From NCBI GenBank assembly GCA_028710615.1, contig JAQTTT010000001.1, positions 1 to 36,723 on the forward strand: a stretch of 36,723 bases of DNA. The letters are read 5' to 3'. The stretch is from Candidatus Nanoarchaeia archaeon (lineage in GTDB: Archaea > Nanobdellota > Nanobdellia > Tiddalikarchaeales > Tiddalikarchaeaceae). This document shows, piece after piece, positions 11,333 to 33,799 of this stretch (position 1 is its first letter; the number at the start of each line of letters is the position of its first letter). The notes below the pieces were generated by a model, which saw only the letters and a list, made by a program, of their open reading frames with translations, did not search any database and was not told the DNA's origin. The position numbers and the translations under genes are program-made.

Positions 11333-11391
11333 GTGTCTGATATTAATATATATCGGCAAAAATATTTTAATTGCCAATAATTAATATTGCT

Positions 11392-11832
11392 ATGAATCAT
11401 GATTTTTTTATGAAAGAAGCTGTTAAAGAAGCAAAAAAGGGTTTGAAGAAAGGGGGAATTCCTATTGGCGCAGTGCTTGTCAGGGATGGTAAAATTATTG
11501 GGAAAGGGCATAATAAGCGGGTGCAGAAAAAGTCTGCCATTCTTCATGCTGAAATGGATTGCTTGGAAAATGCCGGCAGGCTGAAAGCAAGGGATTATGA
11601 AAAGTGCGTGATGTATTCAACGCTTTCTCCCTGCAGCATGTGTTCAGGAGCAATAATTCTGTATAAAATACCCCTTGTTGTTATTGGAGAAAATGAAACT
11701 TTCAAAGGGCCTGAAGAATATTTAAAGAAGTTTGCAAAAGTGATTAATCTTAATAATGAAGAATGCAAATCTTTGATGAAGGAATTCATAAAAAAAAGCC
11801 CGGAATTATGGAATGAGGACATTGGGGTTTAA
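11392..11832 (+). CDS. Cytosine deaminase of the CDA fold (yeast FCY1-like)
   Basis: As far as I recall the FCY1 sequence, the similarity runs along the whole length: GGIPIGAVL, GKGHN, HAEMDCLENAGRL, YSTLSPCSMCSGAI, VVIGEN and the C-terminal LWNEDIGV. The track start at 11371 is a TTG. An ATG lies at 11392, with a TATA-like aaatatttta about 27 nt upstream. Confidence 0.8.
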   Translation: MNHDFFMKEAVKEAKKGLKKGGIPIGAVLVRDGKIIGKGHNKRVQKKSAILHAEMDCLENAGRLKARDYEKCVMYSTLSPCSMCSGAIILYKIPLVVIGENETFKGPEEYLKKFAKVINLNNEECKSLMKEFIKKSPELWNEDIGV

Positions 11833-17088: not shown

Positions 17089-17679
17089 ATGAACAAAAAA
17101 GAATTGGAAATAATATTGTCTAAATTAAAGGATTATTCTGACAAAAAGCCTTCGCTTGAGCAATACATTACTCCCTCAAAGAATGCTGCTGATTTATTGT
17201 GGAGCGCTTATATGAATGCTGACATTCAAGGCAAAACAATTATTGATGCTGGCTGCGGAAACGGCATTTTAGGGATTGGCGCTTTATTATTGGGAGCAAA
17301 GAAAGTGATATTCATTGATATTGACAAGAAAGCAATAATGACTGCTGAAGAAAATCTTAAAGCCCTGAAATTAAAAAATTTTGAGCTTATTAATTCTGAT
17401 ATTTTTGATTTGGATTTAAAAGCTGATGTCTTGATTACTAATCCTCCGTTCGGAGTGCAAAATGCTGGCAGGGATGTTGATTTCTTGATGAAATGCTCGC
17501 AATTATCTGACAAGATTTATTTGATATATAAGGGCGATGGCTTGAAAATACTGAAAAAGAATTTTCCTGACAAGAATGTTGAAGTAATTAAAATTGATGA
17601 ATTATTATTAAAAAAGCAGTTCACTTTTCACACTAAAGACAAGGCTAAAACTAAAATACTCTTGGCAAGGATTTCATGA
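17089..17679 (+). CDS. METTL5-like class I SAM-dependent N6-adenine RNA methyltransferase
   Basis: [11 protein letters not shown]-binding [15 protein letters not shown], and the catalytic NPPFG motif ([10 protein letters not shown]). About 196 aa, as in COG2263/METTL5 orthologues. Confidence 0.75.
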
Positions 17680-20463
17680 GCAGCTTCCAGCAGTGAATAC
17701 TCCGCTGCAGCAGGAATGCGTTGAATTCCAAAAATAATCCAATGCATCATTATTTCCGCAGCACCAATAATTAGCCATGTCTGTCCATGAAGCAGTTATG
17801 TTGTCAATCAAAAATTCAGCCACTTCTGACGGAGTTCCTATGGAATCAGTCCCTAATAATAATGCTCCAATCACTTCATTTCCCCAGTATCTTCCATTAT
17901 ATCCCTCATAATATCCTTCTTGGGATGGATACCAATTATCATTGATTTTCACTCTCCATTTTCCGGGGTCGGAATCAGGGTCTTCTTCAGGATCATAAGG
18001 AACTGAATGAATTTCAATATTATCCCAGTTCCCGCTGGCTTCAAGAGATATTGGAGTCAAACTATCCACTGCAAAATAATTGCCCCCGAGTAAGGCAAAA
18101 ACCAAAACAACGTTTCCAGTATTGTCCATTAATCCAATATATGTTGCCGCTGTTCCTGATGTTGTGACTTTTAAATCAAAAGAAACATAATCCCCAAGGT
18201 CTCCATAGAATTCAAAATTCCTGAAAACAAGAAGCGACGCATCTGTTGATTCATCATAGAATTTTCCTAAAACGTTTTCATTCTCTTCAATTGCAATGAA
18301 TCCCATGCCTGATTCTGGAGCGAATATGAAATGAGTCCAATCATCATCTTCAAGTATGCTGCTTCCATTGCTGAATCTTTCAAAAGTTTCAGAATAATAA
18401 ATATCCATTCCCTCCCCGTTAATCCAGTCATGCCCATAATAATTGCATAATTCGCTGTTATTATTTAATTCACTGTTAATGTATTCTCCTTCAATGCAGA
18501 AATGCGTTGTTGTTTCAAGAGTTCCATTATAAAAAGTGTCTGATGCGCCGTCATCTCCGCAGCAAGCAGCAGAGCCTTGCATAAAACCAATTGGGCTATT
18601 AATCCATGATGCTCTGATGTCCGTGATGTCAAACGTGCCGTTCCCGCTGTCCAGTTCCACATTCGAAACTGTGCCCATTGCCAATGAGACTGGGTTCGCT
18701 GTGCTTGGCACGCCATCAAGGAAAAAATTGACTGATGACGCATTAATTGCTTGCACTTTCAACTCCCCATCAGTGCTGTTGAACAGTTCAATATTGGCGT
18801 CAGCTTCAATCCATGACACTGTTAAATTTTTGATGTGTATTTGATCTAAAGTTGCAGTGCTTGAACTAACTGACAAGTGATCTATATTACCAGAACCAAT
18901 TGCTTGATAACACATTGGATCATTTCCATTGCTCGCAATCTTCACAGGAACGCCATTAATCCAGAGTTTGAACGTTGAGCTGGCATCAAATTCCATCTTA
19001 TAATGGTACCATGTATTTTCAGACATTCCAGTGTAATCCGTGCCAACATATGCAGCGCCATTATATACGCGCATCGCGCCAGTTGAATTAACTGCCATTA
19101 CAATATATGAATACCTGTACCACGGCGGCGAGGAACTATAGCTACCTACAGTGAAACCGCCTGAAGCAGCGTGACTTGGAATGCGTGCGTCAAACTCTAT
19201 ATACTTGCCTGCTTCATAATTAATAGAATTGCCAGTCCACTCGAATTGCACGCCAGCAGAACCATCTGTTCTTATATCCTTAAATTCAATATAATGCGCA
19301 TCGCCACTAATGCGTTTATATAGCGTTCCATATGTGGGAAAATTTACATATCCGCGTAATGTGATGTGTTCAAATTGCGTGCCAGCAGTGTATAGATTAG
19401 TTCCATCCGCCACAACGTTGCTGTTGTTATCATTCTCAAAAGACTCAATGTAAGTGGATGGAGGGTTGAGTAGATAAATCCCTGCGCTTGAATATTCAAG
19501 TGTGGCTGCTGCGCCGATTGAGATGCGCGCTGCATCGAGAACCGCGTGCGAGGTTTCAAGCGAGAACCAATCCCCTGCCACCCAATCCCTTGATGCGGAA
19601 AATGTGAAAACTGGATTGATGTTCGCTGTTGCGTTGGCATCCGCGAATCGCCCCCACGAACGCCCTCCCCCATCAATGTATCTTGTGAACGAGCAATCTG
19701 CTGCCTCAGTCCAAGCATCCCAACCATTCTTGTTTCTTATTGTTTCATTTTCTTCAAAAGTTATGAAATCTTCAACCACTCCATGATTAATCCAGGAATA
19801 ACCCTGAGCTTCGCATAAATTCTTGTTATAATCTATTGGCTGAAAAACATAAACCCCTTGGTAGCAGAAATGCTGGGTTGAGCCTATTGAGCTATTGTAA
19901 AAATTATCCAATAATCCTCCGTATCCGCAGCATGCGCCCCCAGTTCCTGACACGATCCCATTAAACCACACATAAGACGCGTTATACTCATAGCAATCGC
20001 TTTCAATAAGATTGGGCTTGCTGTTTAAAGAAACAGGGTTTGCGACAAATCTTCTTTCAACAGTGTTTCTTTCTGCAGGGCTGAAAGTTTCAACCTGCTT
20101 GCCTGTTCCATAAACAACTTTTACTGTGAAATCTTCCCCTGCTTTTCTTGGAAAAAAAGTTACTTCAACGCCTTCTCCTGGAAAAAGAGGCTCTTCAAGC
20201 TCATAATCCAAAAGCTCGTCATTAATGAAAATAAGCAATTCATAGGCTGGTCCTGAGCCTTCGTTTAAAAGGATTACGCTGTCTCCCAAGGCAGACACTA
20301 TTTTAATATTTGAATGGTCTGATAAAGGATTTAATGAAGTATCAAATCCTGACTGCGAATCTTCCATTATTGCTGTAATGAAAAAAAAGGCTGAAACAGC
20401 AGAAACAATGGTGAGTATTAGCAATAAAGTCATGCTCACTATTGGAGAAATGGATTTATGCAT
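17674..20463 (-). CDS. Large surface protein with an archaeal type IV pilin-like (class III) signal peptide, jelly-roll/LamG-like domains and three Cys-rich modules
   Basis: N-terminus [28 protein letters not shown] matches the archaeal pilin/flagellin-type [KR][GAS]-ISPIV pattern. [23 protein letters not shown] is LamG-like. The Cys modules are described in the findings. Confidence 0.7.
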
Positions 20464-20502: not shown

Positions 20503-20991
20503 TTAAAAATTTATTTTCAATTCTTTTAAATCAGTCTTGAATTGCGTGCATTTAACTTTGGCCAAATCAAGCATTTTCTTGCTTGCTTTTACTGAATCAG
20601 TGTCAGCGTATTTGTCTGACAAGTAAATGATTTCCTTAATGCCTGACTGGATTATTACTTTAGTGCACTCATTGCAAGGAAACAAGGCAACAAAGATTTT
20701 AGCATTTTTTAAATTTTTATTGGAATTAAGTATTGCGTTCACTTCAGCGTGAACAACGTAAGGGTACTTGGTGTCATTAGGGCTTGCTGCAACGTTGCAC
20801 CAGGGCAATTCATCATCACTGCAACCAATGGGAAAGCCATTGTAGCCAATCCCCACAATCTTGTTATTCTCATCAATTATGCACGCACCCACCTGCGTAT
20901 TAGGGTCTTTGCTTCTCATAGCTGAAAGCAAGGCTATGCCCATGAAATACTCATTCCAAGAGATATAATTGCTTCTTTTGTCACTCTTCAT
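20503..20991 (-). CDS. dCMP deaminase (ComEB-type)
   Basis: NWNEYFMGIA-type N-terminus (ISWNEYFMGIALLSAMRSKDP). Zinc motifs HAEVNAI and PCNECTKVIIQSGI. Confidence 0.9.
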   Translation of the reverse strand: MKSDKRSNYISWNEYFMGIALLSAMRSKDPNTQVGACIIDENNKIVGIGYNGFPIGCSDDELPWCNVAASPNDTKYPYVVHAEVNAILNSNKNLKNAKIFVALFPCNECTKVIIQSGIKEIIYLSDKYADTDSVKASKKMLDLAKVKCTQFKTDLKELKINF

Positions 20992-21528: not shown

Positions 21529-22293
21529 TTATCCCAAGTCAAAGATTGCGTAAACCAAGTAGTGGTCTGACAAAGATTTAGTGATGTTTTCAGAGTAAAC
21601 TGATGAAATTATGTGGCATTTGCCAAATTCTTGATTTATAAGTATTTGGTCATAAACGCAATCATTTGAGGACACAGTGGTGTCTTTTGTTATTGCCCAA
21701 TCCCAATCCTTAAAATCATTGCCTTTACTGTAATACGAGCAGTCAGCATTCAAATCCCCCAATATTAAAACGTTGCCTTGGTTGATGATTAAATCCTCCA
21801 AATTATTAATCTCTTCAAATGCTTTATCTGGGCTTACATGAATGCCATAAAGAGTGAAATTAATGTTATTGTAATTAAATGCTGCTTTAATCGGGGGCCT
21901 TGCAAAACCTGTGGTGTTAAGCAGGTTGTAGTCTATGAATTCCATTAATTCAAATTTTTTGTCATAAATTAATAAATACTGCTCCTTATAATTTGACTCT
22001 CCTGCCCTGCTTGAATTAACGCATTCATGTGTGGCGCTGAATCTTTGGCATAAATTAATTATTGCTGAGCCGTCAATATCCCTTATCTCCTGCAGAAAAA
22101 TTATGTCAAACTGCGAAATGATTAAGTGATACTGCATTAGCAAGGATTCATTATTGGCTTTAGCATCCCCGAAAACATTCAAGTTCCATGCCGCTATGCT
22201 TACTGGGTCTTTGGGGGAGAAATCTATGAATGAAAAGCTTGCAGAAAAAATTATTAAAAAAATTATTGCCATTAATGCTTTGTCTGATTTCAT
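21529..22293 (-). CDS. Secreted endonuclease/exonuclease/phosphatase-family nuclease (DNase I-like)
   Basis: Signal peptide MKSDKALMAIIFLIIFSASFS. EEP motifs IAAWNLNVFG, IIFLQEIRD, ILGDLNADCSY and SDHYLVYAIF. Confidence 0.8.
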   Translation of the reverse strand: MKSDKALMAIIFLIIFSASFSFIDFSPKDPVSIAAWNLNVFGDAKANNESLLMQYHLIISQFDIIFLQEIRDIDGSAIINLCQRFSATHECVNSSRAGESNYKEQYLLIYDKKFELMEFIDYNLLNTTGFARPPIKAAFNYNNINFTLYGIHVSPDKAFEEINNLEDLIINQGNVLILGDLNADCSYYSKGNDFKDWDWAITKDTTVSSNDCVYDQILINQEFGKCHIISSVYSENITKSLSDHYLVYAIFDLG

Positions 22294-22299
22294 TTTTTT

Positions 22300-23115
22300 T
22301 TAATCCTTGAATGTTCCTGGCAAAGGGTAAGGGCTTTTGGGAAGCCAGCAAAGCCCCCTGTTCTGGGAGCCTGCTGAAGTGTATTTAAAATCCTCATACT
22401 TTTTTGCTAAATCATTGATTGATTTTTTTTCATCAATTGATAATTCCCCTAAGTGGTGTTTTGGGCTGAAAGATTCAATGATTTTTTCCAATAATTCAGT
22501 TAATTTGGCGTTTGAATACTTGGCGAAGTATCCCACATTTTTTTTAAGGATTTCAGCGTCTTTTTCATCATACCCTTTTATTAATTTAATGGCTAAATCA
22601 TAATCCGGCTTTGAGTAATAAAATGCTCCGTGAATCAACAAGCAATCATTCAGGCTGTGCTGAGCCAAGCCCATTAAAATCTGGTTATTGACATAGATGT
22701 CAAAGCCGTATTTCCTGTCATCCTTTAATTCAGCTTTTAAGCCGAACCCGTTAAACGCGTTAATGAATTTGCAAGCAACGTATTCGTAATTCTTTTTCAA
22801 TGAAAAATTATCCTTTAAACCCGGAATAATCAGCAAGAATGATACATCATTGTTGTGAATATACGCCCTTCCTCCCCCAAGCATCCTGACAACAGAGTAA
22901 TTGTTCTTTTTAGCCAATTCCAAGTCAACATCATCAATGGACTGGTTGTAGCTTAATGTTATTGAAGGCTCCCATTGAAAAAAAGCAAGAGTGGCTTCCT
23001 TGGATTTTGAGTGAAGAGCTTCAGTAACCGCAGCTATTTTTGGCGCTTTAAAATTTTGCAGAGAAAGAACTCTTAAATTCGAATTTTTCAGCTTATCTTC
23101 AATACCCATAATCAT
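22300..23115 (-). CDS. Lipoate-protein ligase A-like protein (BPL/LplA/LipB fold), atypical active site
   Basis: VVRMLGGGRAYIHNNDVSFLLI matches the LplA RRxSGGGAVYHD region. A downstream ..MGLAQH.. segment sits where the K-containing GxKxxGxA motif is expected, but it has no Lys. Confidence 0.65.
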   Translation of the reverse strand: MIMGIEDKLKNSNLRVLSLQNFKAPKIAAVTEALHSKSKEATLAFFQWEPSITLSYNQSIDDVDLELAKKNNYSVVRMLGGGRAYIHNNDVSFLLIIPGLKDNFSLKKNYEYVACKFINAFNGFGLKAELKDDRKYGFDIYVNNQILMGLAQHSLNDCLLIHGAFYYSKPDYDLAIKLIKGYDEKDAEILKKNVGYFAKYSNAKLTELLEKIIESFSPKHHLGELSIDEKKSINDLAKKYEDFKYTSAGSQNRGLCWLPKSPYPLPGTFKD

Positions 23116-23142
23116 TAATTTTTTTTAGTGATTGCATTATTT

Positions 23143-24426
23143 TTAAAGCTTTTTTTGCATTTTTTTCAGGCAAGCATGGCACGCAACGCTTATTGGGTCA
23201 AATAATCGGGAAAGCATTGGATTATAGCAATTATTCATGCCAATCAAATCTTTAAGCTTAAGCCTTTTTTTTATTGCAAGCGATAATAAATTAATTGAGG
23301 AGGAAATGTTTGCTGTGCTTATTGCTTCGCACCCGATTATTTCAGATTCGCTGTTGGCAATTATTTTTACCATAATCCAGTCTTTTGAAATGCATTCCTT
23401 TAAAATGCTTGATTTGTATGCTGCTGAAAAATCTTTTTCTCCCCGCTTTTTTCCTGCTGAGCCAAAAACAAGATTCCCTATTTTTGAAATTCCTGAATTG
23501 ACTGAAGCAAACGCTTCCTCGCTTGATTGCATGTTGTTTGCCAAAGCTTTTGCCATTTTGTGCGCAGTGCTTGCCAATCCGCAAACCCTCGGTTCATTGA
23601 AAAAGTCTTGAAACTCCGCGCAATCGCCTATTGCATAGATGTCTTTTTCGCTTGTCTGCAAATAATCATCAACAATTATTCCTTTATTAGTTTTTATTCC
23701 TGCCTGCTTTGCCAAATCAATATTAGGGGCTGTTCCTGCGCAAACAACTATTAAATCGCAGGATATTTTTTCATGCGACAACATTATTTCATTGCTGTGC
23801 GCTGATTTTATTTGCGCATTCATAATCACTCTTGCACCGTTTTTTTCAAGCTCTTCTTTTAATATGATTGAAAATTGCGGGCTTATGCTGTAATTTAAAA
23901 TGTTTTCAGCCCTGTCAATAAGGAAGACTTGGTGCCCTGATTTTGACAGTGAATCGGATAATTCGCATCCAATGTATCCTGCGCCAATTATTGCTATTTT
24001 TGCTTTTTTTCCTTTTATTTTTTCTTTCAGCATTTTCGCGTCATTTATTGACGAAAAAGTCAGGGGATTCTTTAGCCCTTCAATTTTTGGAATAAAATGC
24101 TTTGCTCCAAGAGCAAGGATTAATTTATCATAATTTATTGAATGAGTTTCTCCGTCTTTTTCATAAACCGCTTTTTTTGAGTGAGAATCAATCTTAACTG
24201 CTTTTGCTGGATTGATTAATTCTATGTTGCTGAATTTCAAATCAGCTTCATTAAACAGGCATTCATAGGAGATTTCATTGCTTAAGTAATAAGGCAATGA
24301 GCATGGAGAATAGTTGAATTCTTTTGATTCTTCAATCAAAATTATTTTTGAGCTCTTGTCAATTTTTCTTAATTCCTGCGCAAAAAGAGTGCCGCTTGTT
24401 CCTGCTCCGAGTATAACTATATTCAT
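23143..24426 (-). CDS. FAD-dependent pyridine nucleotide-disulfide oxidoreductase, NADH oxidase / CoA-disulfide reductase family
   Basis: FAD fold IVILGAGTSGT. Single redox Cys motif YSPCSLPYY. NAD fold IAIIGAGYIGCE. Also IYAIGDCAEF. Confidence 0.85.
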   Translation of the reverse strand: MNIVILGAGTSGTLFAQELRKIDKSSKIILIEESKEFNYSPCSLPYYLSNEISYECLFNEADLKFSNIELINPAKAVKIDSHSKKAVYEKDGETHSINYDKLILALGAKHFIPKIEGLKNPLTFSSINDAKMLKEKIKGKKAKIAIIGAGYIGCELSDSLSKSGHQVFLIDRAENILNYSISPQFSIILKEELEKNGARVIMNAQIKSAHSNEIMLSHEKISCDLIVVCAGTAPNIDLAKQAGIKTNKGIIVDDYLQTSEKDIYAIGDCAEFQDFFNEPRVCGLASTAHKMAKALANNMQSSEEAFASVNSGISKIGNLVFGSAGKKRGEKDFSAAYKSSILKECISKDWIMVKIIANSESEIIGCEAISTANISSSINLLSLAIKKRLKLKDLIGMNNCYNPMLSRLFDPISVACHACLKKMQKKL

Positions 24427-24713
24427 TTTTGTTTCCTTAATTTTTTCAATTCATTCTGGGCTTTCATCAAGTAAGCCAGGCTTGGCCCTCCGCCCATCAT
24501 TACTGCAACCCACATTGCCTCATTTATTTCTTCATCAGTTGCTTTTAATTTTATTAATTCAGCCAAATGGTGCGTTATGCAGTCATCGCATTGGGCTTTA
24601 ACTGATAATGAAATGGCTATTAATTCCTTGAATTTCTCGCTTAAAGCGCCTGATTTTTTTATTTTTTCAGCCATTTGCATGAAAGCTTTTGCGTTTTCTC
24701 CGGTTAAATCCAT
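24423..24713 (-). CDS. Carboxymuconolactone decarboxylase-family (AhpD-like) CxxC protein
   Basis: 96 aa, with the CMD/AhpD signature SVKAQCDDCITHH. 4-nt overlap with the downstream flavoprotein gene. Confidence 0.8.
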   Translation of the reverse strand: MDLTGENAKAFMQMAEKIKKSGALSEKFKELIAISLSVKAQCDDCITHHLAELIKLKATDEEINEAMWVAVMMGGGPSLAYLMKAQNELKKLRKQK

Positions 24714-24734
24714 ACAATCACCTCCAAAATACTA

Positions 24735-25121
24735 TTATTTAAATTCTTTTTCATAATGCTTTAATGCTTCTTGGCTGTTCATTAATTCCTTTAATTCTTT
24801 TTCATTGCTGATTTTCATCTTTACCAGCCAAGCACTATACGGAGAATCATTGATTATTGACGGCTCATCATACGCTTTCATGTTTATTTCAATGATTTCT
24901 CCTGAAAGCGGGCTTTTAATATTGCCTGCCCATTTAACTGCTTCTAATGACGCGTAAGTTTGCCCTTTTTTTATTTTTTCCCCTTTTTTAGGAAGATTAA
25001 TAAAAATGAATTCTTTTGTTTTCTTGGCAGACGGCTCAATCATTCCAATAATTGCTTGCCCATTTTTTTCATCAATCCAATTATGCTCTTTGTCGTACTT
25101 AAGGTTTTTAGGAAAATTCAT
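24735..25121 (-). CDS. gcvH: Glycine-cleavage H-type lipoyl carrier protein (stand-alone in this window)
   Basis: KYDKEHNWIDEKNG...IGMI and the lipoyl-lysine region ASLEAVKWAGNIKSPLSGEIIEIN. The C-terminal SAWLVKMKI is typical of GcvH. Confidence 0.88.
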   Translation of the reverse strand: MNFPKNLKYDKEHNWIDEKNGQAIIGMIEPSAKKTKEFIFINLPKKGEKIKKGQTYASLEAVKWAGNIKSPLSGEIIEINMKAYDEPSIINDSPYSAWLVKMKISNEKELKELMNSQEALKHYEKEFK

Positions 25122-26761
25122 TTTTTCTTCTTACTCTTTTTAACTTTTTTATTTTTCGCAGGCACTTCTTTTTTTTCTTCAATTTCAATTTCCGCCTCTT
25201 TTTTGACTATTTTAAAATTAGTGTAAGCATAATTTATTGCCCATGTGATTATTCCTGCTGCTAAAAATATTTTTATCATGCTGAAAAAATCATCCATTAA
25301 TTCAGGCATGAAAATCATTGAGAATCCCAATGCGAACATGAATAATCCTCCGAATAATTTCAGGATTCTTCCATGCTTTTCCTCAAACTTTGACATCCTT
25401 AAAGTGCATGCTGCTGCAAAAACTATGGCTGCTTCATCAAGCATGTAAATTCCCAAATAAATTGCTAAATGCATTAAAAATTCAATTCCAATTATTGAAT
25501 TCCTTGCCATTATTGATGTCCATAATACTGGCAAGCCTGCAGTGCATGGAAGCTCAACCAATGTAACGCTTAAAGCCAAAAGGATTGTGCCTAAAACCAT
25601 TGCTCTTAAAGAATTCTCAGGATTCATCAGTTTCCTGATTTTTTTGAATAATCCCGGCTTATGCTCATCAGATATTGTAAAAGACAATCCTTTTTTATAC
25701 CAAAAATAGTCCTTAATATTTACTGATGCAAACAATAATGCCAATAGCCCTATGAATAATCTTATCCAAAAAACAAAACCCACATAATAAAGGATGTTTA
25801 ATAATCCAACCATGAATATTCCATAAACCACTGTTGTTGTGATTAAGAAAGTCAATCCAATCAATAATATTTTTTTTCTTGAGCCAGTGTAAAGAACTAT
25901 TCCCAATAAAAACATTATCATCCATAAAGAGCATGGATTGACTCCATCCATTATTGCTATTATTAAAGTGACTAAGTATAAAGACATGCTTGACAAATCA
26001 ACATCTCCCATAAAAGGAATTGTGAGGATGAAATCTTCCTCTGAAACCATTGAGTCAGACACTGGAACATTTGAAGTGTATGCATTAATGTTTTCAACAG
26101 GGCAAGAGCATGAATCATTCAGGCATTTGACAATCAGTGATTCAAGATTATTTATTATTGCGCTGTCTCCTGCCAAATAATAATCCCCCAGGAAAACTAT
26201 TGGGAATCCTGCGCTTACAATGCCGTAAGTTTTTTTGAACTCATTGTATAATTCTTTTTGCTCAGGATAATCATGGATTACTATTTCAACGCCGTATTTT
26301 TCCTTTAATTCTGAAAAGGTTTGGTTGGCAACTCCGCATTGCTCGCAGTCCCAGGTTAAAAAAGCGTGAAGGCACAACGGCTCTGCGTCATTAATTATTT
26401 TTTCTCCGCAACCCCCGTAAGCAATGCAATTCTCTATTTGGGAAATGATTGCCGGATTAAGGCTTGAATGGTAACCTTCCCAATATTTGTCTCCTATAAC
26501 TGTGAATGGAACGCCTCTTGGCGAAACTCCAACTTCATTGGCTTTTTGAACCCACAAATTAGCATTTTGCGGCGAGCTTGAAACATCATATAATTTTAGG
26601 TTTATTTGAGGATAAGAATCTATTATTGATTCAAAAAAAGCTTTTTGATTCAGGCAATAAGGGCATCCTGAACTCCAGAAAAAATATATGTCAACCTCGT
26701 ATTGCGCATAAGCGCTTGAAAGCATTAAAGCCAGCATTGACAATAATATTAATTTTTTCAT
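25118..26761 (-). CDS. Secreted tandem thioredoxin/glutaredoxin-like domains fused to a CcdA/DsbD-like transmembrane thiol-disulfide transporter
   Basis: Signal peptide MKKLILLSMLALMLSSAYA. Two CxxC folds: WSSGCPYC and TWDCEQC. A multi-TM domain follows, with the paired Cys motifs DGVNPCSLW and VELPCTAGLP. Lys-rich cytoplasmic tail. Confidence 0.7.
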   Translation of the reverse strand: MKKLILLSMLALMLSSAYAQYEVDIYFFWSSGCPYCLNQKAFFESIIDSYPQINLKLYDVSSSPQNANLWVQKANEVGVSPRGVPFTVIGDKYWEGYHSSLNPAIISQIENCIAYGGCGEKIINDAEPLCLHAFLTWDCEQCGVANQTFSELKEKYGVEIVIHDYPEQKELYNEFKKTYGIVSAGFPIVFLGDYYLAGDSAIINNLESLIVKCLNDSCSCPVENINAYTSNVPVSDSMVSEEDFILTIPFMGDVDLSSMSLYLVTLIIAIMDGVNPCSLWMIMFLLGIVLYTGSRKKILLIGLTFLITTTVVYGIFMVGLLNILYYVGFVFWIRLFIGLLALLFASVNIKDYFWYKKGLSFTISDEHKPGLFKKIRKLMNPENSLRAMVLGTILLALSVTLVELPCTAGLPVLWTSIMARNSIIGIEFLMHLAIYLGIYMLDEAAIVFAAACTLRMSKFEEKHGRILKLFGGLFMFALGFSMIFMPELMDDFFSMIKIFLAAGIITWAINYAYTNFKIVKKEAEIEIEEKKEVPAKNKKVKKSKKKK

Positions 26762-26857: not shown

Positions 26858-26880
26858 AAGGGGAAAAAAAAAATTCCCTT
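26858..26880 (-). terminator. Candidate archaeal oligo-T terminator (T10) with a short stem
   Basis: On the minus strand the RNA reads UAA-GGGAA-U10-CCCCUUCUUUU immediately after the micro-ORF stop. The A10 run on the + strand is at 26864-26873. The aaggg/ccctt arms can pair. Confidence 0.45.
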
Positions 26881-27007
26881 ATTTTTGCTGGCATAAAGCG
26901 CATACTTCTTTTTGCTTGTCTCCGCAATTCAGGCAAAACTTTGAACCGCATTTGCTGCACTTAAAAACTTTTTTGCTTTTCATGTTATTGCATATATCGC
27001 ATTTCAT
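26879..27007 (-). CDS. 42-aa eight-cysteine zinc-finger microprotein (not in the ORF track)
   Basis: Hand translation: MKCDICNNMKSKKVFKCSKCGSKFCLNCGDKQKEVCALCQQK. This gives four CxxC pairs. GAGGTG lies upstream (27021-27026). A T10 terminator follows. The + ORF 26760-27014 is its shadow. Confidence 0.45.
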   Translation of the reverse strand: MKCDICNNMKSKKVFKCSKCGSKFCLNCGDKQKEVCALCQQK

Positions 27008-27067: not shown

Positions 27068-27205
27068 TTAATCCTTTTTTTTCATAATCTTCGCCCTTTC
27101 TTTGTAGCACTTTGGGCAAATGCTATTATAAGCATTCTGTTTAGTCTTGGGGTTAAAGCCCTTCTTGCAAACTTTGCACCGTATATTATAATTATATGTT
27201 TTCAA
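27068..27205 (-). CDS. 45-aa zinc-ribbon microprotein, probable TTG start (not in the ORF track)
   Basis: Hand translation: (L/M)KTYNYNIRCKVCKKGFNPKTKQNAYNSICPKCYKERAKIMKKKD. It has two CxxC knuckles. AAGGAG lies 11 nt upstream of the TTG. There is no in-frame ATG before the first Cys. Confidence 0.4.
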   Translation of the reverse strand: MKTYNYNIRCKVCKKGFNPKTKQNAYNSICPKCYKERAKIMKKKD

Positions 27206-27260
27206 TTTAATAAAACTCCTTAGCATTGATTAATAATTCGCCATTTATAAACCCTGATAT

Positions 27261-29231
27261 TTATTTCAGCCTTTGAGCCCTTTTTTGAGTGATTGAATGG
27301 CTTATTTTATGCTCAATTGACACATTGCTTTTCAAATCCCTCACCATTATTTCAAAAGGAGCGCTTTTTATTTTAAAATAAAAATGATGCCCTTTGTATT
27401 GCTCTATTCTTAATATTTTTTTTTCAAAGCAATGCCCTTTTTCTTTCAAAATTTCCGACACTGTTTTTATGATTCTTCTTAAATCTTTTGAAGAGTGGAG
27501 CATTTGAATGCTGAAAATATCATCTATTTCATTTAATGGAATATTTTTCATTAGGCTGTGCTGCCACAGCCCTGCAGGCTGCCTGATTCTCATCCTTGCC
27601 CCAAGAATTAACGGATTGCGCTTTAATTCTTTTGTTAAATCTTTTTCAAAAAGAATTGCTTTTTTTTCTCCGCCAATCATAGAAAAAAGATTATTAAGCA
27701 CTTTCAGTGCTTTTTTATGCTCATTAGGGAACATTTCTTCAAACAATGATTCATGCGCGCTGTAAAAATTTGAGCGCTTCTTGCAAAATTTCTCTGAAAC
27801 ATCCATTAAAGCTGCTGCGAGAAGGATTTTTTCTTTTTTTTTCAAAGAAAGATTTAGCGCTTCTTTTTTAAAATCAGCCATGTTTTTTTCAAATAATTCC
27901 ATGAGCTCAGGGCTTATCTCATCTTGAATCCTTTTTACTGCTTTAAAATATTCTGCAACTTTTTTTTTCATGGTGTTTTTTTTATTTTTTAAAGGAGCTC
28001 CAAGATAAAAAGCGATTAAATTGCCCTGATTCCAAAAATTTTTGCTTTTTTCAATTAATGGAAGAGCTAATTCCCCGTAAAGCTTAATCAAGAATCCGTT
28101 AATTAAAAAATGATTTTGGTTTTTTTTTAAAAGATTTAAATAATAAGACAAAAGCCCTTTTTTTCTTTTGTTTTTCATTTCTTTTATGGGCGTATATGAT
28201 ATTTCCAAAATCCTTAATGCAGTTTTTTTTTCGCTTAATCTTGGATTTTGCGCTTTTATTATTCCCATGCTCTTGAGTGTGCATAAGTCTTTAATTTTAA
28301 GCAATTCTTTTTTTAGCTCTTTATTTTTGCTTAATATTATTTTTCCCGTATGCAATGCTTCGGGAATCAATCCCCTGCAGGGCTTGTAAATCTTCCTGGA
28401 TTTAATCATTGGATAAACGGGCAAAGAGTTTTTTTTCAAAAAAAGCGATTGTTTGTTGTCAAAATCAGGTATTATGAATCTTCCATGATTTGATTCTTTC
28501 AGGCATTGCGCGCAGAAATTGTTTGCTGAATAATGAAGCGCTTTTAATGAAATGATTTTAAAATTCGCAAATATTCCATTTTTTAGCAAGCCGCAGCGCG
28601 CCACGCCCTTATTGCTTGCAAACCATTCAAGCTCTTTTTTTGTTGGAAGATTGTAATGAATTGCTTTGAGCTCTTTGAATATCTTTTTAAGAAAATTTTT
28701 CATTTTATTCGGCTTCATCAGGGAATCATCGTTCACTAAAAGCACGCAATCAATATCTGAAAATAAATTAATGCTTTCTTTTCTTAAAAAAAAGCTTCCC
28801 CACCCCATTAAAGCAACATTTTTTTTCTGGTTAAGAACGGATTTTTTAAGCTTTTTAACAAAAGATTTTTTTAAAACAGCGTGTTTTTTTTTAAAAAAAA
28901 AATTTAGCTCAAATCCTTCTTGCCATTGCAAATAACTGCAAACAAGAAATCCGAAAATTTTTTGAAAAAGCGCAAAATCCTGGTTGCATAATGTTTTTGC
29001 AATTTCTTCGCAATCTTTGCATGCCAAAACCTCATTTTTCAGATGAATAATGCTTTTTTCTTTTTTTTGCTTTGAAAAAAAATCCAATTTTTTTTTAAAA
29101 AAATCTGCAAAATCCTGTTCAATGATTAGCTCAGCAGTTAATTTTTTCATGAATTTTTTAATGGTTTTATCGGCAACTGCTTTTCCAAAACCCCTCACTT
29201 TTCTAACTTGAAACTCTTGAAGATTTTCCAT
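27261..29231 (-). CDS. Large Lys-rich protein with a Pol-beta-superfamily nucleotidyltransferase motif and a RelA/SpoT-like C-terminal region
   Basis: Possible HhH at VRGFGKAVADKTIKKF. NTase motif GWGSFFLRKESINLFSDIDCVLLV (28734-28805). The C-terminal 116 aa (27264-27611) carry RMRIRQ, IDDIFSIQM, YKGHHFYF and FEIMVRD, which parallel RelA/SpoT synthetase motifs. The gene is full of A/T homopolymers. Confidence 0.55.
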   Translation of the reverse strand: MENLQEFQVRKVRGFGKAVADKTIKKFMKKLTAELIIEQDFADFFKKKLDFFSKQKKEKSIIHLKNEVLACKDCEEIAKTLCNQDFALFQKIFGFLVCSYLQWQEGFELNFFFKKKHAVLKKSFVKKLKKSVLNQKKNVALMGWGSFFLRKESINLFSDIDCVLLVNDDSLMKPNKMKNFLKKIFKELKAIHYNLPTKKELEWFASNKGVARCGLLKNGIFANFKIISLKALHYSANNFCAQCLKESNHGRFIIPDFDNKQSLFLKKNSLPVYPMIKSRKIYKPCRGLIPEALHTGKIILSKNKELKKELLKIKDLCTLKSMGIIKAQNPRLSEKKTALRILEISYTPIKEMKNKRKKGLLSYYLNLLKKNQNHFLINGFLIKLYGELALPLIEKSKNFWNQGNLIAFYLGAPLKNKKNTMKKKVAEYFKAVKRIQDEISPELMELFEKNMADFKKEALNLSLKKKEKILLAAALMDVSEKFCKKRSNFYSAHESLFEEMFPNEHKKALKVLNNLFSMIGGEKKAILFEKDLTKELKRNPLILGARMRIRQPAGLWQHSLMKNIPLNEIDDIFSIQMLHSSKDLRRIIKTVSEILKEKGHCFEKKILRIEQYKGHHFYFKIKSAPFEIMVRDLKSNVSIEHKISHSITQKRAQRLK

Positions 29232-31459: not shown

Positions 31460-33799
31460 TTATTTTATTTTTTTGAATAAGAATAGGGTTGGCGCTCCCA
31501 CTATTATTGCAATGAATGCGATTATTGCTAAATAATTATTTTCCTGCTCCTTTAACACATTGTATGCTGACAAGGCTTGGGGAACGCTTGATTGGGTGAG
31601 GGATGCTTGGGCTGTGAATTCATAAGGAGAAAGCGTGGCAAAAGCGTAAGTTATTTCATGGGTTTCCTTGGGGCTTAATGAATTTATTGGGCTTAAATAT
31701 TCATCGCCGTCCAATATAATTGCATCTTCTGGCAAGGGAATGGAAAGCTGGATATTTTTCAATGCTTTATCATCCAAAGGGTTTAGCGCAGTTATTGTTA
31801 ATTCATAATGGTAATAAGTCTTGCCATTTGCTTTTAGAATTGATTCAATTATTTTTGATGAAATGTTCAAAGAATTAATTATTATTTCTTCTGTTTTAGA
31901 GCTTGCTTCTTTTTGATAATCTTTTAAATAAATGCTTAAAGAGTATTCTGCCTGCTGTTTTGCGGATTTTAATTGGTTTAAATCCATTGACTCATGGTTT
32001 GCAAGCAATGCTTTTGCATTGTTTATTGCTTCAATTTCAAATAAGGACAAAAATCCTGCGAATCTGCTTAAAAATTCTATGTCTTGATTAATTATGCTTA
32101 TTTCTGCAAATGCTTGATTTTTTTCTTTCAATTCATTTTCTGCAATAAGGGATTCATTTTTGAAAGCATCAAGCTCTGAGCTTAAATCAATTATTTCTTT
32201 TTTGTAGTCAGCATTGCTTATAATATAAACTGCTGAGCTGTGCTGCATTGCCCCTTCATTTCCCGCATTATCAATGGCAGTTATTGCATAATAATATGTT
32301 TGATATCTTTGCGCGTTCAAGTCCTGCGAATGGGTTGATTCTGAGGAGACATTCATAATCATTGAAAATATTAATCCTCCTTGCCCTGCTTGCGCCCTGT
32401 AAACATGGTATCTTGAAGCGTTTTGAACCGGATTCCATGTTAGAATAACGCTTCCTAAGTCTGTTATTCTTGCCGAGAAATAATCAGTTCTTGGTGGCGG
32501 AGTGATTTTTGCATTGAATGAAACATTTTTTGAGGATATTATTCCGTAATTGTCAATGCATGAAAAAATTGCTGTGTTGTTTTCATTTTCTTTTATCACT
32601 GGCAAGCCATGAAGCTTTGAATCATTTATTGCATAATATATGTGATTTGTTGAGGTGATGTTTTCCATTCTTGCATAATGCATGCTTGCTCCATTTGAAG
32701 AGTTTGTTATGTTAAACCAGCAATAATTGACAGGAATATTTGTTGTAATGTTGAATATTGAATTTCTTGAAAAAAGGGAGCTATTTAGCGGGAAATTTAT
32801 TTCCATGTTTGCTCCGTCTATCCTGAAATCATAAATTGCTGTTTTTGGAAGAATTTCTGTTGATAATGAAGTGTTGCACAAAACATGGTAATTGCGAATC
32901 CCTGATTCATTTATTGAAATGTCTGCAATAAATATTTTAGCGGCTAAATTGCTTTCATTGAAATTCATCATTTCGCTATTATTCAATGAATATTGGCATG
33001 AATAAATTTCGTGGCTGTATTTTGAGGCATTGTATATAAAATGCGTTATGTTCCCGTATATTCCGGGAGCATTGGGGAAGAATTCTCCGTTAACTCTTGC
33101 CAAGAACGGGTATGTTGCGTTTTTTGTTTCAGAAACATTAATTGTGCCTCCGCTGCTTCCTTGCGGGTTTATGTAAAAATTTGTGTAAATGCCTGAATTG
33201 CTTATGTTGCATAATATGTCGCATCCGTCGCTTCTGTCTTCATTGCAGGAATAGCTCCATGATGTTATTGGGCCTTCATAAAATCCGTTATTGTTTGTAA
33301 TCATTGTCTCTTGATTTCCTGGGCATATGAGGGTGATATTTTGATTCTTGATTAATTCATTGTCTAATGATTTTAAATGCCCGTTTAAGCCAGTGAAATT
33401 AAAAATCGCTGTTCCCGTGTTATTGTATGTGAAATTAACTTGTGCTCCCCTGTTTGGTCCGCTGTCTCCCTGGGTGATTGCAAATGTGAAGCTGTTTATT
33501 CCATCAGGAGACACTCCTTGTTTGCTTGAATTTATAATGCATGTCGCGCTTGAAGCTGACGAGTTATAAACATCGCTTATTCCAGCAAATGAATAAAATC
33601 CTGAACTATTTGTAAGAGTGTGATGGAAAAAATTGTTAATGCTTGATGAGCAGTTAAGGGTGATGTTTATTCCAATTGCTGGAGCATTATTTGCCAAAAA
33701 AACGTATCCATCAGCATTATTATATCCATATGTTGCCGTGCTGAATCCGTGATTAATGGACAGCAAGAATACAAGCAATATTATGAAATTTTTAGCCAT
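31460..33799 (-). CDS. Large membrane-anchored surface glycoprotein (S-layer-like or adhesin) with an FN3-like domain
   Basis: Signal peptide MAKNFIILLVFLLSINHG. The C-terminal TM anchor YLAIIAFIAIIVGAPTLFLF is followed by KKIK. FN3-like segment ILTWNPVQNASRYHVYRA...YYYAITAIDNAGNEG. A coiled-coil stretch is present. I counted 30 N-x-S/T sequons. Confidence 0.7.
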   Translation of the reverse strand: MAKNFIILLVFLLSINHGFSTATYGYNNADGYVFLANNAPAIGINITLNCSSSINNFFHHTLTNSSGFYSFAGISDVYNSSASSATCIINSSKQGVSPDGINSFTFAITQGDSGPNRGAQVNFTYNNTGTAIFNFTGLNGHLKSLDNELIKNQNITLICPGNQETMITNNNGFYEGPITSWSYSCNEDRSDGCDILCNISNSGIYTNFYINPQGSSGGTINVSETKNATYPFLARVNGEFFPNAPGIYGNITHFIYNASKYSHEIYSCQYSLNNSEMMNFNESNLAAKIFIADISINESGIRNYHVLCNTSLSTEILPKTAIYDFRIDGANMEINFPLNSSLFSRNSIFNITTNIPVNYCWFNITNSSNGASMHYARMENITSTNHIYYAINDSKLHGLPVIKENENNTAIFSCIDNYGIISSKNVSFNAKITPPPRTDYFSARITDLGSVILTWNPVQNASRYHVYRAQAGQGGLIFSMIMNVSSESTHSQDLNAQRYQTYYYAITAIDNAGNEGAMQHSSAVYIISNADYKKEIIDLSSELDAFKNESLIAENELKEKNQAFAEISIINQDIEFLSRFAGFLSLFEIEAINNAKALLANHESMDLNQLKSAKQQAEYSLSIYLKDYQKEASSKTEEIIINSLNISSKIIESILKANGKTYYHYELTITALNPLDDKALKNIQLSIPLPEDAIILDGDEYLSPINSLSPKETHEITYAFATLSPYEFTAQASLTQSSVPQALSAYNVLKEQENNYLAIIAFIAIIVGAPTLFLFKKIK

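Follow-up and report, generated by a model that had tools for sequence, protein, structure and literature searches.

Membrane electron transporters of the DsbD/ScsB type supply periplasmic proteins of the thioredoxin (Trx) fold (PMC3322552). Protein-bound lipoate has been called a natural reductant for thioredoxins and peroxidases and, in Mycobacterium tuberculosis, a redox link connects the lipoyl groups of E2 subunits with AhpD, a thioredoxin-like protein, and AhpC, a peroxiredoxin (PMC12440151). The GcvH-L/LplA2/SirTM/macrodomain operon, for its part, has been linked to oxidative-stress resistance (PMC4518038, PMC12440151). The locus studied here is a six-gene operon of a Candidatus Nanoarchaeia archaeon (assembly GCA_028710615.1), located in the first 36,723 nucleotides of contig JAQTTT010000001.1, a stretch that is called the window below. 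In this operon, the gene of a stand-alone lipoyl carrier of the GcvH family is attached to that of a 547-residue membrane thiol-disulfide protein, named P1. An earlier reading of the same stretch (the original prediction) had proposed a Trx-Trx-CcdA fusion fed by a lipoyl-GcvH, itself charged by an LplA-like protein and recycled by a flavoprotein of the coenzyme A disulfide reductase (CoADR) or NADH oxidase (Nox) type, together with an AhpD-like protein and a co-transcribed nuclease. The operon is interpreted here as a lipoyl-protein-centred thiol relay serving a membrane thiol-disulfide oxidoreductase. The full reductive scheme is given a probability of about one half, and a real functional coupling of P1 and GcvH, considered separately, is probable.

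Conservation of the P1-GcvH linkage

Homologues of P1 number more than 1,500 in a metagenomic protein collection and originate mostly from DPANN archaea and Patescibacteria, the close ones being labelled Candidatus Nanoarchaeia. From more than 534 P1 loci of GTDB species genomes, 80 were sampled and complemented with context loci, giving 84 non-redundant loci in which all open reading frames (ORFs) of the neighbourhoods were clustered without prior labels. GcvH is the commonest real neighbour of P1 as it is found in 31 of the 84 loci, immediately downstream, always on the same strand and with a median offset of 0. The P1 stop and the GcvH start often overlap or stand less than 30 nucleotides apart in these other loci, and they overlap by an ATGA in the window. 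All 31 loci belong to the DPANN/Patescibacteria group. The next neighbours are LplA (18 loci), the flavoprotein (17), a LipA-like protein (15) and LplA-C (13).

The typical order of genes in Patescibacteria is P1, GcvH, a secreted Trx-like protein, optionally a DUF169 protein, the flavoprotein, a LipA-like radical SAM protein, LplA and LplA-C, and an identical order is found in one genome of the Woesearchaeota. One genome of the Iainarchaeota includes a P1-like gene followed by those of GcvH, a CMD-family (AhpD-like) protein and a canonical LplA, and a relative within the Nanoarchaeia carries P1, GcvH, CMD and an LplA-fold protein. The pairing of GcvH with the AhpD-like protein is found in three DPANN lineages.

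The association of a stand-alone lipoyl-GcvH, a flavoprotein and lipoylation genes with a membrane thiol-disulfide protein, as originally put forward, is strongly supported by this synteny in both archaea and bacteria. The conservation of a GcvH-CMD-Nox-CcdA array, named in the original prediction as a point to check, holds in part: the P1-GcvH linkage is conserved and the flavoprotein is frequent, but CMD is restricted to DPANN. Likewise, the wiring had been presented as a novelty for archaea, and it does occur in DPANN archaea but is not specific to them since it is also found in Patescibacteria. The module thus has P1 and GcvH as its core, often accompanied by the flavoprotein and by enzymes of lipoyl attachment, with CMD restricted to DPANN and the nuclease to the clade of the window.

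Architecture of P1

P1 starts with a signal peptide (residues 1-20) followed by two modules. The first one has a thioredoxin/glutaredoxin fold (approximately residues 22-118) with a CPYC motif at positions 33-36, and the second one has a Trx fold (approximately residues 128-222) with CEQC at positions 139-142, the consensus motifs in the family being CPHC and CxQC, respectively. Both folds are backed by a profile search against PDB sequences and by a Foldseek search with the predicted model, so that the Trx-Trx part of the announced fusion is supported. Protein disulfide oxidoreductases (PDOs) made of two Trx units are the best structural matches of this N-terminal half, and module 1 also weakly matches copper-resistance ScsC/DsbA-like proteins in the profile search.

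The membrane domain (approximately residues 258-531) displays seven helices in an AlphaFold model of fair confidence (predicted local distance difference test score 78, predicted template modelling score 0.74). Two cysteines, each preceded by a proline, are invariant among diverse P1 homologues: Cys277, conserved in 28/28 and 34/34 sequences, at the break of the first membrane helix and Cys406 at the break of the fourth one. Two further invariant loop motifs, NIKDYFWYKKGxSFTISDxxKP and EEKHGR, were identified among 28-34 homologues, and both loops are cytoplasmic according to topology and the positive-inside rule. The Lys-rich C-terminal tail fits an N-out/C-in topology, which places the Trx modules outside the cell. 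The homologue alignment also reveals additional conserved external cysteine pairs.

No support was obtained for the CcdA part of the fusion label. The transmembrane half of P1 has no Pfam match even at E<=10 and no significant NCBIfam match. When DsbD_TM (PF02683) and DsbD_2 (PF13386) were compared with 34 P1 homologues, only two of them touched DsbD_2, at E=0.39, whereas true CcdA genes neighbouring P1, used as positive controls, score 2.9e-30 and 3.3e-21 against Pfam. The profile search against PDB sequences returned no match for the membrane half, and Foldseek of the transmembrane model against the PDB gave a best E of 0.39 with TM-scores of about 0.15 and no CcdA match, the full-length model likewise giving none for this half. 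By hhalign against E. coli DsbD, the Cys277 region falls on the first membrane PC-cysteine motif (FTPCVLP, E=0.14-0.27) and the Cys406 region on the second one (LICSPCT, E=0.3), neither alignment being significant; against a profile of five CcdA sequences, E was 0.012-0.03 with a probability below 4%. An internal 3+3 inverted repeat was not detected in P1: when its N-half and C-half were compared by hhalign, nothing but the PC dipeptide could be aligned (E=0.32). P1 is therefore not classed as CcdA, significance being reached by none of Pfam, NCBIfam, profile search, Foldseek and hhalign.

DsbD and CcdA are characterized by two essential Pro-flanked cysteines, in transmembrane helices 1 and 4, and P1 carries both (NPC277 and LPC406). 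Its layout is that expected of a DsbD/CcdA-like thiol transporter, and P1 is treated here as a putative distinct and unannotated family that would work like DsbD/ScsB, not as a member of it.

Canonical CcdA genes (DsbD_TM or DsbD_2) are located just upstream of P1 in four loci, namely L043 (481-1155), L048 (7820-8734), L024 (7579-8286) and L027 (2963-3676). Thus, P1 and a true CcdA can coexist side by side. Being present in only 4/84 loci, canonical CcdA was rejected as a regular partner of P1.

The lipoyl carrier and the other products of the operon

The GcvH protein of the window matches PF01597 over its full length (3.9e-35). It passes the NF002270 subfamily cut-off (121.1 bits vs 117) and fails that of the TIGR00527 equivalog (98.5 vs 115.85). 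The lipoyl-lysine is K63 (codon 24933-24935), within the EAVKW sequence, and the motif of the subfamily is LEAVKW(S/A/T)G. The K-W signature is kept in 29/29 P1-adjacent GcvH homologues, all of which share LEA(V/L)KW(S/T)G. Both the GcvH label and the intact lipoylation motif are hence well founded. No gcvT, gcvP or E2 gene was found in the window or in about 35 P1-GcvH neighbourhoods.

The flavoprotein matches PF07992 (9.9e-58) and PF00070 (1.2e-19). Its single Cys42, within YSPCSLPYY, corresponds to the S-x-C-x-L-P-Y motif of the CoADR/Nox/NADH peroxidase (Npx) type, and its closest solved relatives are NoxA-3 (6PFZ), a CoA-persulfide reductase (8A56), CoADRs and Npx, in line with the type initially assigned. 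It scores far below every NCBIfam equivalog cut-off, as for CoADR (TIGR03385, 236 vs 578.8; NF007123, 212 vs 458). It is not a lipoamide dehydrogenase (TIGR01350, 97 vs 408.8) and bears one N-terminal cysteine instead of CxxxxC. The YSPC(A/S)LPY sequence is kept in nearly all P1-linked flavoproteins of DPANN and Patescibacteria.

The small CMD-family protein displays the AhpD pattern, E30-x11-C42-D-D-C45-x3-H49. It matches PF02627 (3.8e-19), exceeds the TIGR00778 cut-off (41.7 bits vs 27.8) and aligns over 80 residues with the Pseudomonas AhpD 5DIK (3.9e-18) with the CxxC motifs aligned, so that the AhpD-like label is retained. The protein is absent from all Patescibacteria versions of the module, and its assignment as a core step of the relay has been abandoned in favour of a DPANN-only accessory. 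No gene for AhpC or another peroxiredoxin was found in the window or next to the GcvH-CMD pair in L007, L094 and L095, nor was AhpC seen in the other loci. The 'Redoxin' gene of the Patescibacteria operons was considered as a cytoplasmic equivalent of CMD and rejected as its product has a signal peptide, of the lipoprotein type in some cases, and is a paralogue of P1 module 1. GcvH, the CMD protein and the flavoprotein all lack signal peptides.

The fifth gene codes for a protein with the LplA/LipB catalytic fold (PF21948, LplA-B_cat, 8.8e-17, 62.2 bits vs a cut-off of 27), although it reaches only 44.7 bits against TIGR00545, whose cut-off is 280, and matches LplA proteins of the PDB only at about 1e-8. 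The invariant catalytic lysine of LplA (K133 in E. coli) belongs to a K-x-S-G motif and is missing: NQILMGLAQ stands in place of the canonical GKKISGNAQ. The same position reads GKILLGLA in the orthologues of L011 and L013 and FPIAGHA in that of L007, whereas 14 neighbouring LplAs and E. coli LplA carry (K/R)K(I/V)SG(N/S)A; the contrast with the neighbouring canonical LplAs is independent of the E. coli reference. This lysine-less protein is conserved among the Nanoarchaeia relatives (L011, L013 and L007; phmmer E of about 1e-84 to 1e-88) and may be a non-catalytic or mechanistically different relative of LplA. No LipA gene and no gene for an LplA C-domain (Lip_prot_lig_C) is included in the window operon, unlike L009, L010 and L092 for the C-domain. 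The protein proposed to charge GcvH has the expected fold but lacks the catalytic lysine, and it is accompanied by no LipA or LplA-C gene in the operon.

The last gene codes for a DNase I-like nuclease, as foreseen, with a hydrophobic N-terminus and matches to PF03372 (1.6e-9) and to the DNase I structures 9FJU, 1ATN and 1DNK (5.6e-21 to 7e-21). Its Cys185 and Cys212 align with two cysteines of DNase I (ADCSY/NDCVYD vs ADCSY/TNCAYD), presumably those of the C173-C209 disulfide pair. The nuclease was rejected as a conserved member of the module since it is found only in the clade of the window and, about 4 kb further downstream, in L007 and L012. Its linkage to the operon is local to that clade.

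A proposed lipoyl-centred thiol relay and its alternatives

In the reductive scheme, NAD(P)H would reduce the flavoprotein, whose Cys42 would in turn reduce the lipoyl disulfide of GcvH via a mixed disulfide, by analogy with CoADR acting on CoA disulfide. In the next step, on the cytoplasmic face of the membrane, the dihydrolipoyl arm of GcvH would reduce Cys277 and Cys406 of P1, and electrons would move from this pair to Trx module 2 and then to module 1, outside the cell. Finally, module 1 may pass them to secreted clients for reduction or isomerisation, candidate clients being the DNase I-like nuclease here and the secreted Trx-like proteins in the Patescibacteria operons. The AhpD-like CxxC protein would form a DPANN-specific branch fed by dihydrolipoyl-GcvH, dedicated to peroxide detoxification or acting as an adaptor, and not a core step. 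The Trx modules are external, whereas GcvH, CMD and the flavoprotein carry no signal peptide, which leaves the membrane cysteine pair as their sole physical connection.

Several points weigh against this scheme. Each step of the electron transfer is deduced from gene linkage and motifs. The membrane domain of P1 has no significant similarity to CcdA/DsbD by Pfam, by comparison of hidden Markov models or by Foldseek, so that its role as a transporter rests on two invariant cysteines and on topology. In about 48 more distant homologues, which belong to Anaerolineae, Bipolaricaulota and others, the conserved cytoplasmic loops are the same although GcvH is not a neighbour; flavoprotein, LipA and LplA genes are likewise missing from their surroundings. 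Some P1-GcvH loci do not include the flavoprotein in the fetched flanks (L007, L016 and L026). Conversely, a locus of Woesearchaeota (L094, 6001-9731) brings together a K-W-type GcvH, a GH15 glycoside hydrolase, CMD and a CoADR-like flavoprotein without P1. The LplA-fold protein of the window lacks the catalytic lysine. Finally, the consensus of module 1 is CPHC (CPYC in the window) and would fit an oxidative instead of a reductive role, since the oxidase DsbA has CPHC at its active site. As to the direction in which electrons flow, the reductive reading is the most economical, with roughly even odds.

Besides these loci, a P1 homologue from the same metagenome as L094, on a separate contig (L008), has no GcvH neighbour.

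The most serious alternative, unlikely as it is, reverses the direction. P1 would introduce disulfide bonds without the help of quinones, as a functional counterpart of a DsbB-DsbA or VKOR-DsbA fusion. In this case, the external CPHC/CPYC module would oxidise secreted proteins and electrons would travel via Cys406 and Cys277 to oxidised lipoyl-GcvH, which the flavoprotein would re-oxidise with NAD+ or O2. Besides the consensus of module 1, which equals the DsbA motif and is also carried by the secreted paralogues of Patescibacteria, this route is favoured by the alignment of the nuclease cysteines with those of DNase I and by the extra conserved external cysteine pairs of P1, from which these cells appear to make extracytoplasmic disulfides. 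The oxidation of dihydrolipoyl groups by NAD+ is the normal direction of lipoamide dehydrogenase, and the DsbD_TM/DsbD_2 genes found beside P1 in four loci make sense if P1 is not itself the importer of reductant. Moreover, Patescibacteria and DPANN are reported to be without electron transport chains (PMC7507113), so that the quinone-dependent chemistry of DsbB or VKOR would be unavailable to them. However, the CxxC dipeptide alone does not set a redox potential, and the textbook midpoint potential of lipoamide (about -290 mV) makes it poorly suited to take up electrons from a DsbA-like couple. NAD(P)H is the reductant of the known enzymes of the CoADR/Nox type, to which the flavoprotein belongs, and AhpD-type partners are known to be reduced by dihydrolipoyl groups, implying that the lipoyl pool is in the reduced state (PMC12440151). 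If the flow were nevertheless reversed, lipoylation in these minimal cells would mainly serve the folding of surface and secreted proteins.

A second alternative, rather improbable, is co-regulation without coupling. GcvH, the flavoprotein and the AhpD-like protein would provide a lipoyl-dependent defence against oxidants that is confined to the cytoplasm, like the mycobacterial Lpd/DlaT/AhpD system. P1 would receive its electrons from ordinary thioredoxin, and the two would be encoded together only as common responses to oxidative or thiol stress. Such a separation is suggested by the cluster of GcvH, CMD and flavoprotein without P1 in L094, by the P1 homologue that stands alone in L008 and by those of Anaerolineae without adjacent GcvH. 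A thioredoxin gene located 3 kb upstream of P1 in one Patescibacteria locus (L009) and the recurrence of ArsR, ArsP_1 permease and Thioredoxin_3 genes upstream of P1, suggestive of a stress island, point the same way. However, it is GcvH, and neither the flavoprotein nor CMD, that stays attached to P1 in two domains of life, with a median offset of 0 and frequent stop/start overlaps, whereas the others come and go. In addition, the Patescibacteria operons contain no cytoplasmic CMD or peroxiredoxin, their 'Redoxin' being a signal-peptide-bearing paralogue of P1 module 1, and AhpC was not seen in any locus.

An ordinary GcvH, acting in glycine cleavage or in a lipoyl relay donating lipoate to E2 proteins encoded elsewhere and linked to P1 only incidentally, is very improbable. 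Its full-length GCV_H match, its passing of the NF002270 cut-off and the donation of lipoyl groups from GcvH to E2 subunits in Bacillus and Staphylococcus (10.1101/419234; PMC12440151) would agree with such a role. Against it stand a score below the gcvH equivalog cut-off, the lack of gcvT, gcvP and E2 genes in the window and in the P1-GcvH neighbourhoods, a distinct K-W-S-G-H motif conserved in the subfamily and an association with P1 that recurs in 31 species of two domains and is not incidental.

A role in metal(loid) or sulfur handling would have a thiophilic species (arsenite, Hg, Cu or persulfide) cross the membrane by way of the P1 cysteines and bind to the lipoyl dithiol of GcvH, the flavoprotein being a persulfide or metal reductase. 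It might be evoked by the ArsR and ArsP_1 permease genes recurring upstream of P1, by the CoA-persulfide reductase among the closest solved relatives of the flavoprotein and by the module 1 matches, weak as they are, to ScsC/DsbA-like proteins of copper resistance, but it is scarcely credible since two Trx-fold CxxC modules indicate thiol-disulfide exchange and not metal transport, the flavoprotein has no rhodanese or MerA-type extension and none of the ArsR/ArsP_1 neighbours is present in the window.

Operon layout and neighbouring genes

The six genes are co-directional on the minus strand (Table 1). From P1 to the nuclease, the junctions consist of a 4-nucleotide ATGA overlap (P1 stop/GcvH start), a 21-nucleotide gap, a second 4-nucleotide ATGA overlap (CMD stop/flavoprotein start), a 27-nucleotide gap and a 6-nucleotide gap. 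This arrangement, the T10 run and the EAVKW motif are all as described in the original prediction. A scan of the operon found no run of eight or more T within the six-gene block.

Table 1. Coordinates of the operon genes, of the membrane cysteine codons of P1 and of the flanking elements in the window.
Feature	Position	Strand	Evidence or remark
P1, 547-residue membrane thiol-disulfide protein	25118-26761	minus	ORF list
Cys277 codon, first membrane Pro-Cys motif, DGxNPCSLW	25931-25933	minus	broken helix, model helices 261-273 and 276-290
Cys406 codon, second membrane Pro-Cys motif, ELPCTAGxP	25544-25546	minus	broken helix, model helices 385-407 and 409-420
GcvH-family lipoyl carrier, 128 residues	24735-25121	minus	PF01597 3.9e-35
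AhpD/CMD-family CxxC protein, 96 residues	24423-24713	minus	PF02627 3.8e-19
FAD/NAD(P)H disulfide-reductase-family flavoprotein, 427 residues	23143-24426	minus	PF07992 9.9e-58
LplA-fold protein, 271 residues	22300-23115	minus	PF21948 8.8e-17
DNase I-like nuclease, secreted or membrane-anchored, 254 residues	21529-22293	minus	PF03372 1.6e-9
T10 run, likely archaeal oligo-T terminator	26864-26873	minus	sequence reading
Putative promoter region upstream of P1	26762-26800	minus	sequence reading, inference only

Five of the six proposed domain labels are supported by Pfam (GCV_H, CMD, Pyr_redox_2, LplA-B_cat and Exo_endo_phos), but no match was obtained for DsbD/DsbD_2. Genes for gcvT, gcvP, 2-oxoacid dehydrogenase E2, thioredoxin and thioredoxin reductase were not found by Pfam among the 26 ORFs scanned in the window, the coverage of several ORFs near its 3' end consisting only of Pfam calls precomputed for locus L001; the announced lack of gcvT, gcvP and 2-oxoacid dehydrogenase genes is borne out for the ORFs scanned. 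The archaeal markers TFIIB, Cbf5, GatD/GatE and ATP-dependent DNA ligase are encoded in the window, which also matches contigs from a pair of metagenome-assembled genomes at NCBI (GCA_028716185.1 and GCA_028687195.1).

The T10 run lies directly 3' of the stop codon of a 34-residue Cys-rich ORF and thus most simply terminates this small gene; it would also be likely to shield the operon from transcripts started further upstream. The sequence TTAAAAATAA, a TATA-like element rich in A and T, is located at approximately -29 to -20 relative to the P1 ATG, a position that would be compatible with a leaderless P1 transcript. The small ORF (26879-26983, minus strand) encodes MKSKKVFKCSKCGSKFCLNCGDKQKEVCALCQQK, in which six cysteines form three CxxC pairs, and ends 5 nucleotides before T10. 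A second small Cys-rich ORF upstream of the operon (27068-27226, minus strand) codes for 52 residues with two CxxC pairs.

For three large minus-strand ORFs of the window, Pfam gave no significant match (17674-20463, 31460-33799 and 27261-29231; 929, 779 and 656 residues, respectively). The first two display signal-peptide-like N-termini with 16 and 10 cysteines and are possible extracytoplasmic clients of a thiol-disulfide system. Two genes of the cytidine/dCMP deaminase family are found within these 37 kb (11371-11832 on the plus strand and 20503-20991 on the minus strand). One deaminase-family gene is directly downstream of the operon region, a position kept in L007.

In other genomes, the surroundings of P1 include further recurrent genes. 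In 19 loci (among them L009, L010, L014, L018, L023, L024, L027-L032, L034, L038, L039, L041, L052 and L092), the gene immediately upstream of P1, in the same orientation, codes for a secreted protein of about 217 residues with a CTTC motif and no Pfam match. This protein is absent from the window and may be a further member of the module or a client. Three other genes recur near P1 whether GcvH is present or not, namely those of an ArsR-type regulator (in 28 loci), of an ArsP_1 permease (in 25) and of an 83-residue Thioredoxin_3 protein (in 22). Examples are L009 (1980-4259), L091 (1-1599) and L092 (12892-13749), and this recurrence hints at a more extended island of genes for thiol or metalloid stress. 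A DUF169 protein is encoded in or beside the P1-GcvH operon of L010 (9846-10604), L013 (690-1442), L016, L026 and L052; in the last three, it follows GcvH and no flavoprotein was detected in the fetched stretches. The operon of the Patescibacteria type also occurs in several TPA_asm records whose titles name 'uncultured Gammaproteobacteria', 'Pseudomonadales' or 'Bdellovibrionales' (L016, L018, L024-L028, L031, L032, L034 and others). These titles look unreliable because gene content and P1 similarity group them with Patescibacteria/DPANN.

Significance and comparison with known systems

Despite a minimal metabolism, many DPANN and Patescibacteria have retained GcvH, a flavoprotein and a synthase or ligase for lipoyl groups, and the present analysis shows that the genes of these proteins stay in physical linkage with that of a membrane thiol-disulfide protein. 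The module is small, with four to six genes. The linkage to P1 offers a concrete and testable reason for the 'orphan' lipoylation of these cells. If the coupling is real, protein-bound lipoate would join thioredoxin as a currency for transmembrane redox equivalents, and P1 would represent a new family of membrane thiol transporters not recognised by current domain libraries. Surface proteins and secreted nucleases are central to the host-associated life of these organisms and both depend on external disulfide chemistry; the module suggests an undescribed way of powering redox chemistry at the cell surface of ultra-small archaea and bacteria. Searches of open-access full texts yielded no account of a membrane thiol transporter linked to GcvH, nor of lipoylation in this context in the candidate phyla radiation (CPR) and DPANN.

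P1 resembles DsbD, CcdA and ScsB by its polytopic membrane domain with one Pro-preceded cysteine in each of two helices and, as in DsbD and ScsB, this domain is fused to extracytoplasmic Trx-fold CxxC domains (PMC3322552). It differs from them by seven predicted helices, its own invariant cytoplasmic motifs and the Trx-Trx-membrane order, and the gene attached to it is that of a lipoyl carrier instead of a thioredoxin. The N-terminal half is closest to the archaeal and Aquifex PDOs (1J08, 2YWM and 1A8L), which consist of two tandem Trx-fold units each with a CxxC and are its best structural matches as well as weak profile matches. However, PDOs are cytoplasmic and soluble, whereas the Trx units of P1 follow a signal peptide and are tethered to the membrane.

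The Lpd/lipoyl-DlaT/AhpD/AhpC relay of M. tuberculosis, an NADH-dependent peroxidase system (Bryk et al. 2002, as cited in PMC12440151), similarly uses a protein-bound lipoyl group as a carrier between a flavoprotein and an AhpD-family CxxC protein, and the CMD protein of the window carries the AhpD pattern E-x11-CxxC-x3-H. Unlike in this relay, the carrier here is a stand-alone GcvH and not an E2, the flavoprotein is of the single-cysteine CoADR/Nox type and not a CxxxxC Lpd, AhpC is missing and the conserved partner is a membrane protein.

The GcvH-L/LplA2/SirTM/macrodomain operon of Staphylococcus and Streptococcus (PMC4518038, PMC12440151) also combines a second GcvH, not devoted to glycine cleavage, with its own LplA-family protein and an oxidoreductase. 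In the present module, neither sirtuin nor macrodomain is included; the partners are the membrane thiol protein, the CoADR-like flavoprotein and the AhpD-like protein, and the hosts are DPANN and Patescibacteria. In the LbpA/sLpl(AB)/sHdr system of sulfur oxidation (PMC6067878, PMC10332631), GcvH-like lipoate-binding proteins are likewise served by dedicated ligases and radical-SAM lipoyl synthases outside 2-oxoacid and glycine metabolism. The module described here differs by the absence of Hdr-like, DsrE and TusA genes, by the LipA-like nature of the lipoyl synthase in the Patescibacteria loci and by its context of a membrane thiol relay. The parts are therefore of known kinds, and what appears to be new is their wiring, the unrecognised membrane family and the distribution of the module across two domains of life.

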